Source: Promethearchaeota archaeon
Lineage (GTDB): Archaea > Asgardarchaeota > Thorarchaeia > Thorarchaeales > Thorarchaeaceae
NCBI GenBank assembly: GCA_014728035.1
Contig: WJMJ01000079.1
Span: 108,827-172,826, forward strand
Direction: 5' to 3'
DNA length: 64,000 nucleotides
The translations under genes were made by a program, and so were the position numbers. The notes beneath the pieces were generated by a model. That model ran no database searches. It saw nothing but the letters and a program-made list of their open reading frames with translations, and had not been told where the DNA came from. Shown piece by piece: positions 4,535-50,170 of the stretch; position 1 is the stretch's first letter; every line of letters begins with the position of its first letter.

Positions 4535-4709
4535 ATCATCTACCCATGTCCTCACAGGATTCTGTGCATAAAAAGGACTCTGCAAATATTGCCTTGATTA
4601 CTACTGTTTCCGGATTATTATTAGATAAATATTAAACCATATATACTAAAACAATATACTTTATATACGTATTATGTATATGTTTTTATTGTAACAAATA
4701 GGTGATATT

Positions 4710-20597: not shown

Positions 20598-20871
20598 TTT
20601 CTGGGATAAAAGAATTGGTGAGTATTTTCCTATAATGACTAAAAACCACTCCGACCTATTGCGGACGTGCAAATACTCGTAAAATCTTCAGAGTGACATA
20701 AGTTGATCTAGGCAATATTTGCAGATTTCTTTATTACATTCTTTCTATCTATTTGAATTGGTCTTGTATACGAATTCAATATCTTTATCGAACTTATTAG
20801 ATACATGCAGAAACCATTAAAAGACCAACAGGACAAGACTCTCTTGTTCACGTCCAAGATGTGAAAATCAA

Positions 20872-31141: not shown

Positions 31142-32236
31142 CTACCTCTTTTCACTTTGTTCGTTTACTCGATATATTCCCTGTCTACTATCTCTCAGTG
31201 ATATTCTCTTTGTTACCAAACCTTCCGATATTAAAATTGAGAGGGCATATCGTGCGGTTCGAGGTGGAAGTATTGACTCTGTTATTATTTCCTTTTGAGT
31301 TAGTGGTCCCTTGTATTCAAGTACTTTTAGGACTAGTTTTGCACTTGGAGGTAAATCTTGTGCTAAATCATCGAATTCTTCTGTCTTTCTGGAAAGCTTT
31401 CCTCTAAGGTCAGCAATTTTCTCTTTACTAAGTTGGACAAAAATAACATCATTTTCAGCCTTTTTTATCGTAATTGTGCCTTGTTTGACTTTTTTCCGTA
31501 ATTGCCCGTCAAGAATGGCTTCAACAGTTACTGAACAACTAATGTTTCGAATTTCAATCTCTGTGTCATTAGATACTATCGTTGGGCGATTAGCTGGATT
31601 AATGCTGTTTACTGGAATGATTGATATTACTGCGGCTGGACTTAATACTACTGGGCCTCCCACACTCAGTGAGTAAGCAGTACTACCTGTGGGCGTTGAA
31701 ACAATAATTCCATCACTTCCGTCTTTCAAAAACTGTTCTCCATTAAGGAATAAAGAATATCTGATTAGGGTAGCACTTTTTCTAGCGAAAATACCTACGT
31801 CGTTTAATGCTGTCGGGCCTTTTTGCCCATCAATTTCTATGCTAAGTCGTGATCGGGGCTCTCTACCCCAATTACCTGAAATTATGTCTTCAATTAAATA
31901 ATCGAAGTCTGAAACCGTTATATCAAATAGAAAATCTGGTTGGCCTTTTGACGCTATGGGAAGTATTGGAGTATCGGTATCTTCGAATTCAAGAAGTCTA
32001 GATAGAAGAGATTTATCTGATCCTATCACCATTAGGATATCTGCGTCTACGTTTTTTATAGAACGATATTTCCACTTGAGGGATTTAGCTGTTTCATCCT
32101 CCAGGTAGACATCAACTCCTGCATTTTGTAATATTTGAATAATTTCTTTTGTGTCTTCAAGAACTGATACCTCTGAACTAGCTGAGAGAAATATCTTCAT
32201 AATCTGTTCCTCACTGAGGGATTTCAATTTGTACAC
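31142..32236 (-). CDS. NAD-kinase-like domain fused to C-terminal winged-helix HTH
   Basis: ALND, DGIIVSTPTGSTAYSLSVGGP, LDGQ; GGDG replaced by GSDK; C-terminal LPPSAKLVLKVLEYKGPLTQKEI...RTARYALSILISEGLV...DSRQGIY. Confidence 0.88.
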   Translation of the reverse strand: MYKLKSLSEEQIMKIFLSASSEVSVLEDTKEIIQILQNAGVDVYLEDETAKSLKWKYRSIKNVDADILMVIGSDKSLLSRLLEFEDTDTPILPIASKGQPDFLFDITVSDFDYLIEDIISGNWGREPRSRLSIEIDGQKGPTALNDVGIFARKSATLIRYSLFLNGEQFLKDGSDGIIVSTPTGSTAYSLSVGGPVVLSPAAVISIIPVNSINPANRPTIVSNDTEIEIRNISCSVTVEAILDGQLRKKVKQGTITIKKAENDVIFVQLSKEKIADLRGKLSRKTEEFDDLAQDLPPSAKLVLKVLEYKGPLTQKEIITESILPPRTARYALSILISEGLVTKRISLRDSRQGIYRVNEQSEKR

Positions 32237-32291
32237 TGTTATGTAACTCTTAAATAGAGCTGATACTCGTTTTAACTCTCGAATCCGAGGT

Positions 32292-32336
32292 AGGCAATAC
32301 TTGCCTTTGGAGGTATTCTTCGGAAAACATTGCCGA
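32292..32336. promoter_or_regulatory. Two GGCAA-N3-TTGCC palindromes in the divergent NADK-HTH/nadA intergenic region
   Basis: AGGCAATACTTGCCT (32292-32306) and TCGGAAAACATTGCCGA (32320-32336). Confidence 0.55.
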
Positions 32337-32377
32337 TTGTGATTCTGTTAATAAGCCATTGACAAATTGATATGTAG

Positions 32378-33349
32378 GTGAACCTAGTGGAGAATGAACT
32401 CACCGACCTTCAAAAAAGAGTACTTGAGTTAAAAAAAGAACGTAACGCATTAATTTTAGCTCATAATTACCAAACCATGGATATCCAAGAGGTTGCTGAT
32501 TTCGTTGGTGACTCTTTGGAATTAGCAAGGAAATCCGCTGAAGTAGAAGGATACGACTTGGTTATTTTTGCTGGTGTCAAATTTATGGCCGAAATGGCAG
32601 CAGTTTTGTCTAAAGATATTCCGGTCTACATTCCAGCACCAAAAGCACTTTGCCCCCTAGCTGCTTTTGTAGATAGTGAAAAGGTACTTGAGATGAAGAA
32701 ACAACATCCTGATACCCCTGTTATTGTGTATGTAAATACTACTGCTGACACAAAATCCGAATCCGATATGCTCTGTACCTCCGGTAATGCTCCAGAAATT
32801 GTCGAATCATTAGGTGTCGACAAGGTTCTTTTCGGACCTGATAGTAACCTTGCTGAATATGTTCGTAGAAGAACAGGTATTGAGATTATTGACATTGAAC
32901 CACGAGGGCATTGTTATGTTCATAATCAATTTGATATAGCTCAAATTGAACTACTTCGTGAAGAACATCCTGATGCTGTTGTAATCGCTCACCCAGAATG
33001 TCCTCCTGAGGTTCAGGATGCTGCAGATATGGTTGGATCTACTAGTATGATGGCTAGAACAGTTGCAAATTCACCCAAGAAGAAGTTCATAATTGCTACA
33101 GAAATGGGTTTGGTTCACCAGATGCAGAAACGAAATCCGGAGAAGATTGTTATCCCTGCTTATGAAGGAGCAGTTTGCAGACAGATGAAAAAGAATACTC
33201 TAGAAAAAATTCTATACATTCTTGAAGATTTACCAGAAGACCATTTAGTAACCGTACCCGAGCATATGGTTGCTCATGTTCGAAAAATTCTTGAACAGAT
33301 GAACAAAGCACCATCAACTGTTGAAGTCTTGGTCGCAAAAACATCTTGA
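32378..33349 (+). CDS. nadA: Quinolinate synthase
   Basis: ILAHNYQ, FVGDSL, GVKFMAE, YVNT, CTSGNA, CYVH, AHPEC, GST, TEMG, CRQMK. Confidence 0.97.
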   Translation: MNLVENELTDLQKRVLELKKERNALILAHNYQTMDIQEVADFVGDSLELARKSAEVEGYDLVIFAGVKFMAEMAAVLSKDIPVYIPAPKALCPLAAFVDSEKVLEMKKQHPDTPVIVYVNTTADTKSESDMLCTSGNAPEIVESLGVDKVLFGPDSNLAEYVRRRTGIEIIDIEPRGHCYVHNQFDIAQIELLREEHPDAVVIAHPECPPEVQDAADMVGSTSMMARTVANSPKKKFIIATEMGLVHQMQKRNPEKIVIPAYEGAVCRQMKKNTLEKILYILEDLPEDHLVTVPEHMVAHVRKILEQMNKAPSTVEVLVAKTS

Positions 33350-33368: not shown

Positions 33369-33980
33369 TCAGACGAAGTAGATTACACTTCGTCCCTCTA
33401 TTTTTCTTCCTGCTTTTCCCATCACTACAAGCTGTTCAAGAAGATTACTTGCACTCTTGACACTTATCCCCAACTCCCTTGCACCCTTTTGTGCAGTCAT
33501 TTGCCGTTCTCTTACAAGAAGCATTGCGATATCTTTCAATTTTTTTGGTAATTCTACAATTGCTAACGCATCAAGAGGCAATCTTGGTTTAACACTGTCA
33601 GTATATTGCAAGTCTTTTGGAATAATTTTGTCAAGTACCTCTGTAAACTTGTCAAAGATTGGGAGATTCTGTCTTCCTTCTTGGATATCTTTTCCATATC
33701 TACTGATGAAATTCAGCCCGATATAATCAATCAGATTTGCAGTTACCTCTGTTGGTCCATCTGCAATTACTACCGTTGTTACCTGCTTATGGTCCGCGAC
33801 AAAAATGAATCTTCCATCAGATTCAATTCCACGCAGGTCATCACCCATTGCTTCTTTGCTAAAACTTGACATAGCTGATACAAAGCTACTGAGAAGATAT
33901 GGGTCTGCTAGTTCGGGATCGTAGGACCTACTAAAAACACATACTCCTCCAGAAACAAGCACATAAACAGCTCGAATCAT
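33369..33980 (-). CDS. Longin-like domain plus C-terminal winged-helix protein
   Basis: MIRAVYVLVSGGVCVFSRSY...DPYLLSSFVSAMSSFS Asgard longin pattern; HTH TAQKGARELGISVKSASNLLEQLV; ATG at 33980 abuts the ATPase stop. Confidence 0.78.
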   Translation of the reverse strand: MIRAVYVLVSGGVCVFSRSYDPELADPYLLSSFVSAMSSFSKEAMGDDLRGIESDGRFIFVADHKQVTTVVIADGPTEVTANLIDYIGLNFISRYGKDIQEGRQNLPIFDKFTEVLDKIIPKDLQYTDSVKPRLPLDALAIVELPKKLKDIAMLLVRERQMTAQKGARELGISVKSASNLLEQLVVMGKAGRKIEGRSVIYFV

Positions 33981-33981
33981 T

Positions 33982-34770
33982 CTATTCACCTGGAAATTCA
34001 GCATTTTCGATTTTCTGTTCAATCTCTGAGAGCTGTTTTATGAACGGTAAATCTGGTTGAGTTAATGCTAACACTTCGCTTCCCATGCCTAATGGCACAT
34101 TGCAATAACATGGTAGAAATCCTAAGAGTTGGGTTTTATTTTCGAACATTTCCTTCACCATATCAATCATACCAGAGGAGGAAGAAGACTCTAGAAGATT
34201 TGGAACTACTTTGTTAAATAGTAGCATGGTGTTTTTGTTAAGTGGTCCATAAAGCTCATCTAGTAGGTGTGCTGTTCCATCGAAATCGAAATTGTCGATT
34301 TTGGCAACTATGATTGTAAAATCTGAAACCACAATGGTGTTTACACTGCTATAGTGTACACCTGGCGCAGAATCAAGAATAAAATAATCAAATCCTTCTT
34401 TCTCTAACTTTTGCTTCAGTACAAGTAATTGCGAGATAGCTTGCATGTGCCATTTTCTATCTTTAGCTAGTTGCTCACGGATAGCTTCTACATTCGGATC
34501 TGAGAATCCAACAAGTAATTGACCACTTAAATCAAATGACGAACCTATGTCCGTAAGAATCTCTGTGTGTTTGACTTTTTCACTGAGAAAATCATTGATA
34601 TATGCAGACCTAGCTGCTATCCCAAAAAGTGTATGAAGGCTTGGTGCCTGAAAATCTGTATCAAGAATTGCTACATCATGTCCTTTCTTTGCCATGATTG
34701 CAGCTAAATTAGCAGCAAGTGTGGTTTTTCCTGTTCCTCCTTTGTAAGAATGAATGGCAAAGGTCCGCAT
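33982..34770 (-). CDS. MinD/ParA-family ATPase
   Basis: Deviant Walker A SYKGGTGKTT, LDTDFQAPSL, DYFILDSAPG, FNKV. Confidence 0.92.
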   Translation of the reverse strand: MRTFAIHSYKGGTGKTTLAANLAAIMAKKGHDVAILDTDFQAPSLHTLFGIAARSAYINDFLSEKVKHTEILTDIGSSFDLSGQLLVGFSDPNVEAIREQLAKDRKWHMQAISQLLVLKQKLEKEGFDYFILDSAPGVHYSSVNTIVVSDFTIIVAKIDNFDFDGTAHLLDELYGPLNKNTMLLFNKVVPNLLESSSSSGMIDMVKEMFENKTQLLGFLPCYCNVPLGMGSEVLALTQPDLPFIKQLSEIEQKIENAEFPGE

Positions 34771-47039: not shown

Positions 47040-48374
47040 TTATGATAGCTCCGTTGATTCTGACAATTCTCGTTGTCTTTTTCTTTCTTCTACAATTTGT
47101 TTATTTCTTCTAACAGCTAAATACATGGGAATTACACAGAACGGATACAGCATGAAAGCAATTGGGAAGAAGAACCTTCCAAATGGCACAATCCCACCCA
47201 TTATACCGATTCCCAAAAGATATGAAGTAAGAAGCGTTCCTGTTTGTCTTGGAAAGGTCCACATGACTCTTGTGAGCGCGAGAGACCTCGCTCTACGCTC
47301 AGAGGAAATTTCGCCCATGAACAGTGAATTTGATGCAGGTCTCGCCATATTTGCAACTGCCATTCTTACAACATAGAATCCGACCATCACAAGAAAAATC
47401 GGAATGTACACCATTCCTATTGTCAGTAAGGGTGTCATCAGATACAATAGAAGAATCATTTTGATTTTTCCCACCCGTTCACTCTGAAGTCCTACAAATA
47501 GAGTTCCAGATGCCAAAGTAAGATTTGCTACTGCTGGCACAGATCCGAGAATAACTGGGTCTGGTGTATATGCTGCATTTATCCAGGGAATCAGATAAGG
47601 AACTACCATTCCACTGCTAATTCCCATCATTGCTTGACTAATCCCAAATAGAATAGCAGTGATCAAGTCATCACGAGATTCACCATTGAGTTCCTGTGAA
47701 TCCTCCTCCTCCTTTTCGATTTCTTCTTCTATAGCAGGTGTGATGTCTGGATTTGCGTGAAGCCATCTTTCTGTGAAGAATCCAAAGATACCTGCAGATA
47801 ATCGAGCTCCTCCCATGATATAGAATAGAATTGCGTATCTGAATAACGGATCTCCAGCTAATGGAAATGCTACAGGGTCGATAATGAATCCTGCTAGAAA
47901 CGGACCTGATGCTGCGGCAAGCGTTGCAACTGCAATTGTGATTCCGTATGATTTGGTACGTTCATCTCCCTTTTTTGTGTGATCTGCAATCAGAGAATCT
48001 AGTGATGTTCTGGTGAACCCAGAACCGATTCCAGTAAGTGCATATACGAGGATTATCATTAGCGAGTCTGTTACAAATGGAAGATAGAATAAACAAGCAC
48101 CATTAATAATTCCACCAAATAGGATTGCTGAACCTCTACCTTTTCTGTCGCTTAGAGTACCTGCTGGAAATAAGGCAATTGCTTGAACATATCCCGCTGC
48201 AGCTACCATTACTCCATAAAATGCTTCATCCTGACCAATGGCGAGAGCGAATAATGGGAGTGCGATTGAATTGAGCGCAAAACCAAAACGGTTGAAAAGA
48301 CTTAGCAAAGATAGTCTTGCAATCTTCTCAGTCTTTTTGTCTTTAGCACGTGATGTTAAGCTCTCTACACCCAT
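47040..48374 (-). CDS. MFS transporter
   Basis: About 12 TM helices; motif A GTLSDRKGR. Confidence 0.9.
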   Translation of the reverse strand: MGVESLTSRAKDKKTEKIARLSLLSLFNRFGFALNSIALPLFALAIGQDEAFYGVMVAAAGYVQAIALFPAGTLSDRKGRGSAILFGGIINGACLFYLPFVTDSLMIILVYALTGIGSGFTRTSLDSLIADHTKKGDERTKSYGITIAVATLAAASGPFLAGFIIDPVAFPLAGDPLFRYAILFYIMGGARLSAGIFGFFTERWLHANPDITPAIEEEIEKEEEDSQELNGESRDDLITAILFGISQAMMGISSGMVVPYLIPWINAAYTPDPVILGSVPAVANLTLASGTLFVGLQSERVGKIKMILLLYLMTPLLTIGMVYIPIFLVMVGFYVVRMAVANMARPASNSLFMGEISSERRARSLALTRVMWTFPRQTGTLLTSYLLGIGIMGGIVPFGRFFFPIAFMLYPFCVIPMYLAVRRNKQIVEERKRQRELSESTELS

Positions 48375-48562: not shown

Positions 48563-50170
48563 ATGGATAATGATGATATATTTGAAGAAGATTTTGACGA
48601 AGGCATGTATCTTGAGATACTTCGTGATAATCCCCCATTGAAACGATATGTGTCTCGTGGTGACACTCCAGATGATGTGGATATTTCAGGTCCACACGAA
48701 GATGCTGACGCTGCAATATCTAGGGTTATACGCTTTACAAAGAGTGATGGCACCCCACGTTTCCTCCCGGTTTTGGGTAGTGCTGGTATGGGGAAGACAC
48801 ATCTTTTCTGGGTAACTAAAGATCGAGAAGAATACATGACACCTGGGCCTTTTCTTACGGTTTATGTGCCCTCACCACCCTCACCCATTCGAGTCCCTTT
48901 ACATTTCTACGCATGTCTGGTAGACGAGGCTGGTGACAACATTTTCAAAACCACTGCAAGAATGCTATTAGAAAAATTTGGTGAGAAGAAGGGAGTATTC
49001 AGACAGCATTACGATTTTACTGATGTTATGAATGAAGCAGCTAGGGAATATCCTGGACTTGCGGCTGACGTAGTAAAGGTGATTCTTAGATATGAGCTAG
49101 ATGAAAAGAAGCGACCATTGGCTAGAAGGTGGTTATTGGCAGACGCTCTCAGTGATGAAGAGCTTGATGAATTAGATGTTCGAACTATTCTTGAAGAAGA
49201 CGATATAGTCATTATCGCCTTCAAATTGCTAGCTGAAGGTTCTGAGAGGCCTCTTGTACTGTTTGTTGATGAAATGGAAGGACCTTACAATACACATGGA
49301 GAAGAAGGCGAAAGGCAATTCTTGGAGGTAATCAAGAGACTCTACAATGAATGTCAGAACTTGGTACTTATTGCATCTTGTCTTAGCGAAATTTGGGCAA
49401 GGGTCTATGATATTGCAGATGCTCCGATGAAATCTAGAATGGAAACACCTGTTCAACTACGACATTTCACTCGTGATGATGTAGAAGAGTTCGTCAAAGA
49501 AACAATGATTCGTTATTGGGAAGAACAGAATATCGATTCACCAACTGAAGGAATCTTTCCAATGAATGCAGAAGATATTGATGCAGCGTTCAAAGCCTCT
49601 AATGGTGTTCCACGGGAAGCTATTCGCCAGGTCATTACCCGCCTTGATTCCATATTATTTGGAACGAAAGCAGAACCAGAACTACCTGTACAAGATGACT
49701 ATGTCGTTAAGCTAACAGCGAATGTGGTTGTTGGAGCTATCATCAAGGGTCTAAAACTTGCTGCTACTTCAAAAGGAGTTGAAGTAAACCTTCATGTTGC
49801 AAGTGGTAATGTTGGAAAACAAGCTACTGCTATTGTTGTTGTTAAACAAGGCGATACAGAACATTTCATTGGTATCGATGTACCAAATGTTAAGGATTGG
49901 AATAGAAGTGGTGGTGTTGGTGCATACTATTCTGCAAAACGGTTGAAAGATTTGATTGCTAGTGGAGACTGTGAAAAGGCAATTATGGCCGTTCCAGAAG
50001 AAACATCCGGAGCAAAATTCGAATCTCTGAGTGAGGAGTTAGGTGAAGACCTCTTTACACTTTTGTTGGATGAAGAGTCTGCTACTGCTCTGGTGAAGAT
50101 TACTAATATGGACCAACTCACTCCAAACCTTGAGAAATTCTTCAGTCACATTGTCGATAAACTCTTCTAA
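48563..50170 (+). CDS. AAA+-type P-loop ATPase with uncharacterised C-terminal domain
   Basis: Walker A GSAGMGKT, Walker B LFVDEME, KSRM, SNGVPREAIR. Confidence 0.8.
   Translation: MDNDDIFEEDFDEGMYLEILRDNPPLKRYVSRGDTPDDVDISGPHEDADAAISRVIRFTKSDGTPRFLPVLGSAGMGKTHLFWVTKDREEYMTPGPFLTVYVPSPPSPIRVPLHFYACLVDEAGDNIFKTTARMLLEKFGEKKGVFRQHYDFTDVMNEAAREYPGLAADVVKVILRYELDEKKRPLARRWLLADALSDEELDELDVRTILEEDDIVIIAFKLLAEGSERPLVLFVDEMEGPYNTHGEEGERQFLEVIKRLYNECQNLVLIASCLSEIWARVYDIADAPMKSRMETPVQLRHFTRDDVEEFVKETMIRYWEEQNIDSPTEGIFPMNAEDIDAAFKASNGVPREAIRQVITRLDSILFGTKAEPELPVQDDYVVKLTANVVVGAIIKGLKLAATSKGVEVNLHVASGNVGKQATAIVVVKQGDTEHFIGIDVPNVKDWNRSGGVGAYYSAKRLKDLIASGDCEKAIMAVPEETSGAKFESLSEELGEDLFTLLLDEESATALVKITNMDQLTPNLEKFFSHIVDKLF

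Follow-up and report, generated by a model that had tools for sequence, protein, structure and literature searches.

To our knowledge, the known regulators of nicotinamide adenine dinucleotide (NAD) metabolism (NadR, NiaR, NrtR and NadQ) are bacterial. NadR, the enterobacterial HTH-NMNAT-RNK protein, and NiaR control nadA/nadB-type genes in response to NAD or niacin, and NrtR employs an NAD-nucleotide-binding enzyme fold as its effector domain, joined to a C-terminal winged-helix-type domain and often encoded beside NAD genes (PMC2330246). The closest described system to the one reported here is the archaeal RbkR, in which a cofactor-pathway kinase domain is fused to a MarR-like winged helix; its palindromic operators immediately precede the promoter elements both of its own gene and of biosynthesis genes, and it was judged a likely activator, with the pathway product reducing its binding to DNA (PMC5397151). 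Here, we describe P0001, a protein composed of an NAD kinase (NADK)-like region and a winged helix-turn-helix (wHTH) at the C-terminus, the gene of which lies head-to-head with the quinolinate synthase gene nadA in a stretch of 64,000 nucleotides (the window; contig C45, positions 108827-172826) of a 4.3-Mb Thorarchaeia (Asgard) metagenome-assembled genome that is 98% complete with 8.5% contamination. P0001 is quite probably a transcription factor that arose from a duplicated NAD kinase turned NAD(P) sensor and that, equipped with its C-terminal winged helix, controls nadA. No NADK-like transcription factor or archaeal NAD regulator was found in the full-text literature, subscription-only papers lying outside the scope of that search. 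If the reading is true, P0001 would represent the first NAD-synthesis regulator known in Archaea, offering a testable protein, a 13-bp operator and a defined target promoter, and the NAD kinase fold would join the short list of enzyme folds recycled as sensors.

P0001 resembles RbkR in that a conserved palindrome co-occurs with the regulator gene (intact in 38 of 38 loci with the gene and decayed in seven of seven without it), but the two differ in fold, as the RbkR kinase domain is a cytidine triphosphate (CTP)-dependent RibK that is unrelated to the NADK fold, and in domain order, the wHTH being N-terminal in RbkR and C-terminal in P0001. Furthermore, RbkR is an active kinase and the only RibK of its genome (PMC5397151), whereas P0001 carries an altered motif I and is found beside a canonical NADK. 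Unlike P0001, NrtR is a bacterial repressor with a Nudix fold that senses ADP-ribose, and no sequence relationship between the two was seen in Pfam or PDB searches. NadR, as P0001, couples NAD-enzyme domains to an HTH; however, NadR and NiaR differ from P0001 in their folds and DNA motifs, are confined to bacteria and act as repressors, and no homology of P0001 to either was detected with Pfam. The only Pfam matches of P0001 are to NADK and wHTH domains, with Nudix, NMNAT/RNK and 3H domains not found. The gene and its relevant elements are the following:

31142..32200, complementary strand: NADK-like/wHTH fusion gene encoding P0001, 352 aa (open reading frame and translation)
32012..32023, complementary strand: motif I, GSDK, replacing the GGDG of NAD kinases (residues 60-63; from the sequence)
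31799..31804, complementary strand: short NE/D motif, N133-D134, which contacts NAD in NAD kinases
31652..31714, complementary strand: conserved region II, DGIIVSTPTGSTAYSLSVGGP (residues 163-183), the NAD-binding loop
31166..31354, complementary strand: C-terminal wHTH (residues ~283-345; from the AlphaFold2 model)

The first-pass annotation of the window, made from the sequence without database searches, had proposed this fusion head-to-head with nadA, a change of GGDG to GSDK among otherwise intact NAD-binding motifs, and an appended MarR-like wHTH. The arrangement was confirmed, with the fusion gene on the complementary strand opposite nadA on the forward strand. The longest open reading frame of the fusion gene spans 31142..32236 on the complementary strand and starts at GTG 32236; however, ATG 32200 is the likely start, since a GAGGAA Shine-Dalgarno sequence is located 7 nt upstream of it, all P0001 orthologues begin at this position, and GTG 32236, which was rejected, would come after the TATA-like element of the gene (32247-32255) but ahead of the position at which transcription is expected to start. 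P0001 matches Pfam NAD_kinase_C (PF20143) at 6.4e-20 (71.6 bits against a cut-off of 23.7), while the N-terminal NAD_kinase domain (PF01513) remains under its cut-off (21.4 against 25.5 bits) and all NCBIfam NADK equivalog models are far under theirs (best 148 against 326). The AlphaFold2 model (mean predicted local distance difference test score, pLDDT, of 84) displays a two-domain NADK fold, for which the best PDB matches are the NAD kinases 7qvs, 1u0r and 1suw (template modelling (TM) score ~0.8; Foldseek E=4e-26, TMt 0.8), followed by a poorly defined linker at residues 267-274 and by three helices and a two-stranded wing (residues 285-345).

The modelled wHTH comprises about 65 residues, namely three helices and the wing with nothing after it, and the N- and C-terminal helices that flank the wHTH and form the dimer interface in MarR proteins are absent. 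All of its Pfam matches are sub-threshold (MarR_2, 20.3 bits against a cut-off of 27; MarR, 17.5 bits; HTH_24), and a profile of the C-terminal domain yielded a weak match to the MarR-family structure 3oop (E=1e-3). The winged helix proposed by the earlier annotation is seen in the model, while its likeness to MarR is weak and does not extend to the dimerisation helices. Across the family, no other part of the protein is as well conserved as this domain with its putative recognition helix, PRTVRYAL, and the segment LPPSAKLVLKVLEY...PRTVRYAL...LRDSRQ is kept in distant fusions too. Since motif I departs from GGDG and the MarR dimerisation helices are missing, P0001 is placed in neither the NAD kinase nor the MarR family and would be, by its predicted domains, of the kind of enzyme-derived metabolite-sensing transcription factors.

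Canonical NAD kinases share with P0001 the two-domain fold (TM ~0.8), the NE/D and GSTAY motifs and the motif I Asp; in P0001, by contrast, GGDGT is changed to GSD[K/R]x, the G-x-L-G-F-L loop of the N-terminal domain is changed to SKGQPDFLF, and about 95 residues of linker and wHTH are added. The GSDK of P0001 aligns to the GGDG of solved NADKs and of the canonical NADK of the same genome, and the altered form is itself conserved: among the 40 orthologues of the Thorarchaeia locus comparison, 37 carry G-S-D-[K/R], the remainder being single instances of GSDH, GNDK and GGDR, and the next residue is variable. Of 127 archaeal NADKs, 124 carry GGDGT, the Thr of which is needed for activity (PMC3769651). 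The residues by which NADKs contact NAD (PMC9763689), namely the Asp of motif I, both members of the NE/D motif, and a Thr and a Tyr in conserved region II, have as their P0001 counterparts D62, N133, D134, T174 and Y176. The 49 homologues that were used for residue conservation and for the AlphaFold2 model all share D62, N133, T174 and Y176, with D134 conserved to at least 90%, and the invariant residues of region II are D163, G164, T169, T171, G172, S173, T174, A175, Y176, G181, G182 and P183. Because the NAD-contact residues are kept while motif I is altered, as had been noted in the first-pass annotation, the pattern of conservation indicates that the nucleotide pocket is under selection and that the phosphoryl-donor loop is not of the NADK type.

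The second, canonical GGDG-type kinase for which that annotation had suggested a search was found on contig C44: P0002 (315 aa) carries the motifs GGDGT, NE and TPTGSTAY and shares only 23% identity with P0001. As a separate canonical NADK exists, P0001 would not be needed for the NADP supply of the cell. Additionally, when 87 Thorarchaeia species genomes were searched with P0001, every one returned a match; the fusion is present in approximately 55 of them, and in those without it the best match is a canonical NADK of about 300 aa.

The features of nadA and of the intergenic region between the two genes are the following:

32387..33349, forward strand: nadA, quinolinate synthase (Pfam NadA, 1.5e-104; NCBIfam NF006878, 362.9 bits, above cut-off)
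32348..32355, forward strand: TATA-like box of nadA, TTAATAAG (putative promoter role)
32335..32347, forward strand: conserved element of 13 nt, GATTGTGATTCTG, separating box 2 from the nadA TATA
32322..32334, unstranded: box 2, GGAAA-ACA-TTGCC (GGAAAACATTGCC), one mismatch; weaker predicted second site
32293..32305, unstranded: box 1, GGCAA-TAC-TTGCC (GGCAATACTTGCC), perfect palindrome; predicted primary operator
32247..32255, complementary strand: TATA-like element, ATTTAAGAG, of the regulator/beta-CASP unit (putative promoter role)

The nadA start, GTG 32387, is preceded by GGTGA (an alternative in-frame GTG is located at 32378), and the GGTG-N6-9-start pattern is conserved in relatives; the spacer between the fusion gene and nadA measures 186 bp with the preferred starts and 141 bp with those of the first-pass annotation. 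The positions of the two boxes given in that annotation proved correct, as did the single mismatch of box 2; as a correction to its twin palindromic operators, box 2 is largely a half-site. The comparison of relatives covered 40 Thorarchaeia fusion loci, of which 38 have the fusion divergent from nadA, with a second family among them and protein identities as low as 43%; at the two others contig ends intervene or the upstream flank is missing. The 38 intergenic regions in which the fusion faces nadA all contain GGCAA-N3-TTGCC at fixed spacing. Box 1 has no mismatch in most of them and one in the rest, its N3 centre and flanks being variable, and it is offset from box 2 by 29 bp in 35 loci and by 30 bp in three. 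The right half of box 2, TTGCC, is invariant in the 38 loci; among the 34 scored for the left half, 20 match GGCAA at four of five positions and seven at three of five. Furthermore, the nadA TATA begins 13 nt past box 2 in 37 of the 38 loci and 14 nt past it in one, and the intervening 13-nt element conforms to the consensus G[AT]TTG[AT]GATT with high information content. The regulator's own TATA-like element, C[AT]CTTAAAT, is located 38-56 nt upstream of its start in 35 of the 38 loci, and its distance from box 1 varies from 5 to 41 nt; given this variability, the predicted box pair is positioned relative to the nadA promoter and not to that of the regulator.

Eight Thorarchaeia genomes from five genera possess nadA and lack a full fusion gene. 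In six of these, the beta-CASP gene that usually lies downstream of the regulator is directly opposite nadA, behind the same TATA-like element, indicating that the regulator was deleted. Seven genomes without the fusion, belonging to at least four genera, show 2-8 mismatches at the place of box 1 and a decayed left half of box 2. The eighth genome, G024, retains a truncated wHTH fragment only:

L054:2627-2794 (G024:C17), between nadA and the beta-CASP gene: wHTH remnant, 55% identity to residues 295-350

This open reading frame was rejected as a stand-alone wHTH regulator, since it is truncated and lacks helix 1 as well as the whole NADK domain, and is regarded as a deletion relic. Box 1 of G024 has one mismatch (TGCAATCGTTGCC), and the genome looks like a case of regulator loss in progress; nadA was not found in G022 and G025, two other genomes of its genus. 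Box 1 tracks the fusion gene, and the promoter-proximal part does not. The 13-nt element, being kept in regulator-less genomes, is independent of the regulator, and the segment at 32330-32347 of the window (the TTGCC of box 2 together with the 13-nt element) may constitute a promoter element that does not depend on the regulator, or else a site for some other factor.

Beyond Thorarchaeia, full-length fusions with the wHTH were identified in six other Asgard families within a sample of 400 genomes, and none was found in one Asgard family represented by 135 genomes in that sample. The fusion of family f6 is divergent from nadA with two boxes, GGAAATTTTTGCC and, 30 bp downstream, TTGAAATTTTGCC, and that of f8 is divergent from a nadA-nadC operon, with only the variant GGCAATTTTTGCT near nadA. 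In f26, a gene for a nicotinate phosphoribosyltransferase (NAPRTase)-like phosphoribosyltransferase is directly downstream of the fusion, and in f30 the fusion adjoins an NAPRTase-like gene and an isochorismatase (PncA-like) gene. In contrast to these NAD-synthesis neighbours, the f5 fusion (L061:2065-3108, G091:C38) is divergent from an NfnAB-like pair, consisting of a Fer4_20/Pyr_redox_2 subunit and a DHODB_Fe-S_bind subunit; this member keeps canonical GGDG and GxLGFL motifs and may represent a bifunctional form with a different target. Motif I otherwise reads GRDR or GRDG in f26, GD[ST]G in f8 and GGAA, with loss of the Asp, in f30. A maximum-likelihood tree groups the fusions as a single clade, separate from the canonical NADKs that the same genomes encode (support 93/94); the placement of one long-branch paralogue is uncertain.

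Across 1.84 billion cluster representatives, an exhaustive HMMER search returned 84 proteins at E<=1e-30. In a separate count among the best 150 matches, 84 carry the wHTH, with GGDG kept in 18 of them, and 64 do not, with GGDG kept in 55; NE/D and GSTAY-type motifs are kept in both groups. The non-Asgard members P0149, P0168 and P0207 are full-length NADK-wHTH proteins (sources: Micrarchaeota (Ca. Norongarragalina), 'Methanobacteriota archaeon' and Kariarchaeaceae) that are annotated plainly as NAD kinase, and Kariarchaeaceae-type members have no recognisable motif I. Several hundred entries labelled 'NAD kinase' or 'sugar kinase' are probably regulators and, if this is true, metabolic reconstructions of Asgard and other archaea that count such entries as NADK would be wrong. 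As the family mixes members that look catalytically intact with others that look dead, it would provide a natural series from trigger enzyme to pseudoenzyme sensor.

This mixture bears on the alternative that P0001 is a bifunctional trigger enzyme, which would retain NAD (or NADH) kinase activity besides regulating nadA, in the way that catalysis and DNA binding are joined in RbkR, BirA and NadR. The retention of the catalytic Asp and of all NAD-contact residues would suit such a role, as would the persistence of GGDG in the f5 member, in a Micrarchaeota cluster and in others (the 18 of 84 wHTH carriers counted above), and in three of five f26 genomes no other NADK was found, although these genomes are 87-91% complete. 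For P0001 itself we nevertheless consider continued catalysis improbable: two of the three motif I glycines are replaced in Thorarchaeia (Ser at position 2, Lys/Arg at position 4), the functionally important Thr at the fifth position is not conserved (PMC3769651), and a canonical NADK-type match is present in all 87 Thorarchaeia genomes, fusion carriers included, whereas RbkR and RibK never co-occur (PMC5397151). Elsewhere in the family the Asp itself is gone, as seen in the GGAA of f30 and in the SDS/SDH of Kariarchaeaceae-type members.

With P0001 read as a nucleotide-sensing regulator, its oligomer would bind the box 1 palindrome and, 29 bp away, the weaker box 2 and, from these fixed positions upstream of the nadA TFB-recognition element (BRE) and TATA, would tune quinolinate synthase transcription to the NAD(P) pool; it would probably also tune its own operon with the beta-CASP gene. 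NAD kinases commonly form dimers of dimers; the palindromic box 1 would fit a dimer, and a second site about three helical turns away would fit a dimer-of-dimers. With the TATA centred near -26, box 2 extends from about -56 to -44 and box 1 from about -85 to -73, both upstream of BRE/TATA, which is the usual arrangement for activators in archaea. As the sites are located upstream of the core promoter, activation relieved by nucleotide is somewhat favoured over repression. In the simplest scheme, nucleotide-free P0001 would bind at low NAD(P) and help to recruit TBP and TFB, and binding of NAD(P) would weaken its hold on the DNA. It may be speculated that the conserved Lys/Arg beside the Asp facing the 2'-position reads the 2'-phosphate of NADP(H).

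Several findings weigh against this reading of P0001. The catalytic Asp (D62) is retained, so that residual kinase activity is possible. Perfect GGCAA-N3-TTGCC motifs occur twice in the 4.3-Mb genome against ~2.2 expected, and the significance of the boxes hence rests on their conservation in relatives. Nothing above background was observed upstream of nadC or nadB-like genes in this genome, so that only one pathway gene would be controlled. Other Asgard families in which the recognition helix is almost identical have perfect motifs within genes only (G091, G101 and G394) or none at all (G376 and G377), and the operator motif is consequently not transferable beyond Thorarchaeia and f6. Regulator-less genomes still carry the TTGCC of box 2, the adjacent 13 nt and the nadA TATA, so that box 2 may in part be a promoter element with another role. 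Finally, the regulator was lost in several lineages with no obvious change of the promoter; it is thus dispensable, and a repressor fits this pattern at least as well as an activator. Overall, the proposal of the first-pass annotation, an NADK fold repurposed as the sensor of a transcription factor for de novo NAD synthesis, gains support from the canonical paralogue, from the conservation of the boxes and from motif I, and finds none in sites at nadB or nadC.

The persistence of the TTGCC of box 2 and its adjoining 13 nt where the fusion is missing, together with the chance-level motif count and the sub-threshold Pfam scores of the wHTH, could also be accommodated if the palindromes were the operator of another factor, or a structural feature of the promoter, and the fusion merely an NADK paralogue with a winged helix of some other use. 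This explanation is highly improbable, as box 1 is intact in all 38 loci with the fusion and decayed in all seven without it, across several independent losses; the wHTH, including PRTVRYAL, is the most conserved part of the protein throughout the family; and the fusion adjoins different kinds of NAD genes in different lineages.

The pattern of losses also bears on the sign of regulation, since the same protein and sites could serve a nucleotide-loaded repressor that oligomerises from the boxes over the 13 nt and BRE/TATA. Characterised NAD regulators such as NiaR and NrtR are all repressors, repeated regulator loss with the nadA promoter unchanged is the harmless outcome that repression would predict, and in some species box 1 is just 5 nt from the regulator's TATA, which would suit autorepression. 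Both boxes are, however, confined to the region upstream of the TATA, from which the end of box 2 is 13 nt away, and the same argument was used to classify RbkR, with sites 1-12 nt upstream of promoter elements, as a likely activator (PMC5397151); repression is therefore held to be rather unlikely, albeit a less distant prospect than either alternative discussed above.

Taking P0001 as an activator, a broader evolutionary reading may tentatively be offered, although we would rate it somewhat below an even chance: P0001 would be the founding member of an archaea-wide family of NAD-metabolism regulators that passed from trigger enzyme to pure NADP(H)-sensing tetrameric activator. The NAD kinase would first have been bifunctional, a stage represented by GGDG-keeping DPANN and some Asgard members, and repeated loss of the donor site would have left a pure NAD(P) sensor. 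Through the Lys/Arg in the place of the final GGDG glycine, which would read the 2'-phosphate, the factor would respond to NADP(H) instead of NAD, and as a tetramer it would bridge two operators whose positions upstream of the nadA promoter are fixed.

The regulon of this genome seems to consist of nadA and the regulator/beta-CASP unit only. Non-coding sites with at most one mismatch number only 12 genome-wide, none of them near NAD genes, and the second perfect motif copy (C152:9968) was rejected as a chance occurrence, being located inside a Cys-rich open reading frame. The scan suggested by the first-pass annotation was hence productive for nadA (in the 38 relatives) and not for nadB or nadC in this genome, in which aspartate dehydrogenase was also not found. 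The remaining component of the presumed regulon is the gene following that of P0001:

28998..31136, complementary strand: beta-CASP/metallo-beta-lactamase gene, 5 nt past the regulator's stop (Pfam Lactamase_B and Beta-Casp)

This gene is directly downstream of the fusion in 39 of the 40 Thorarchaeia loci and is probably co-transcribed and co-regulated with the NADK-wHTH gene. An N-terminal region of about 320 aa in the beta-CASP protein has no domain assignment.

Four further GGCAA-N3-TTGCC-like sites with one mismatch are located in the window, at 4581-4593, 20711-20723, 47916-47928 and 49978-49990, giving a window total of six such sites against 1.0 expected, a number that none of 100 shuffles reached; the one at 4581 has cysS on one side and an ABC-transporter ATPase gene on the other. 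At 33369-34770, downstream of nadA and on the complementary strand, a gene for a 217-aa protein with a weak longin-domain match and a C-terminal HTH-like tail is overlapped at its start by a MinD/ParA-type ATPase gene.

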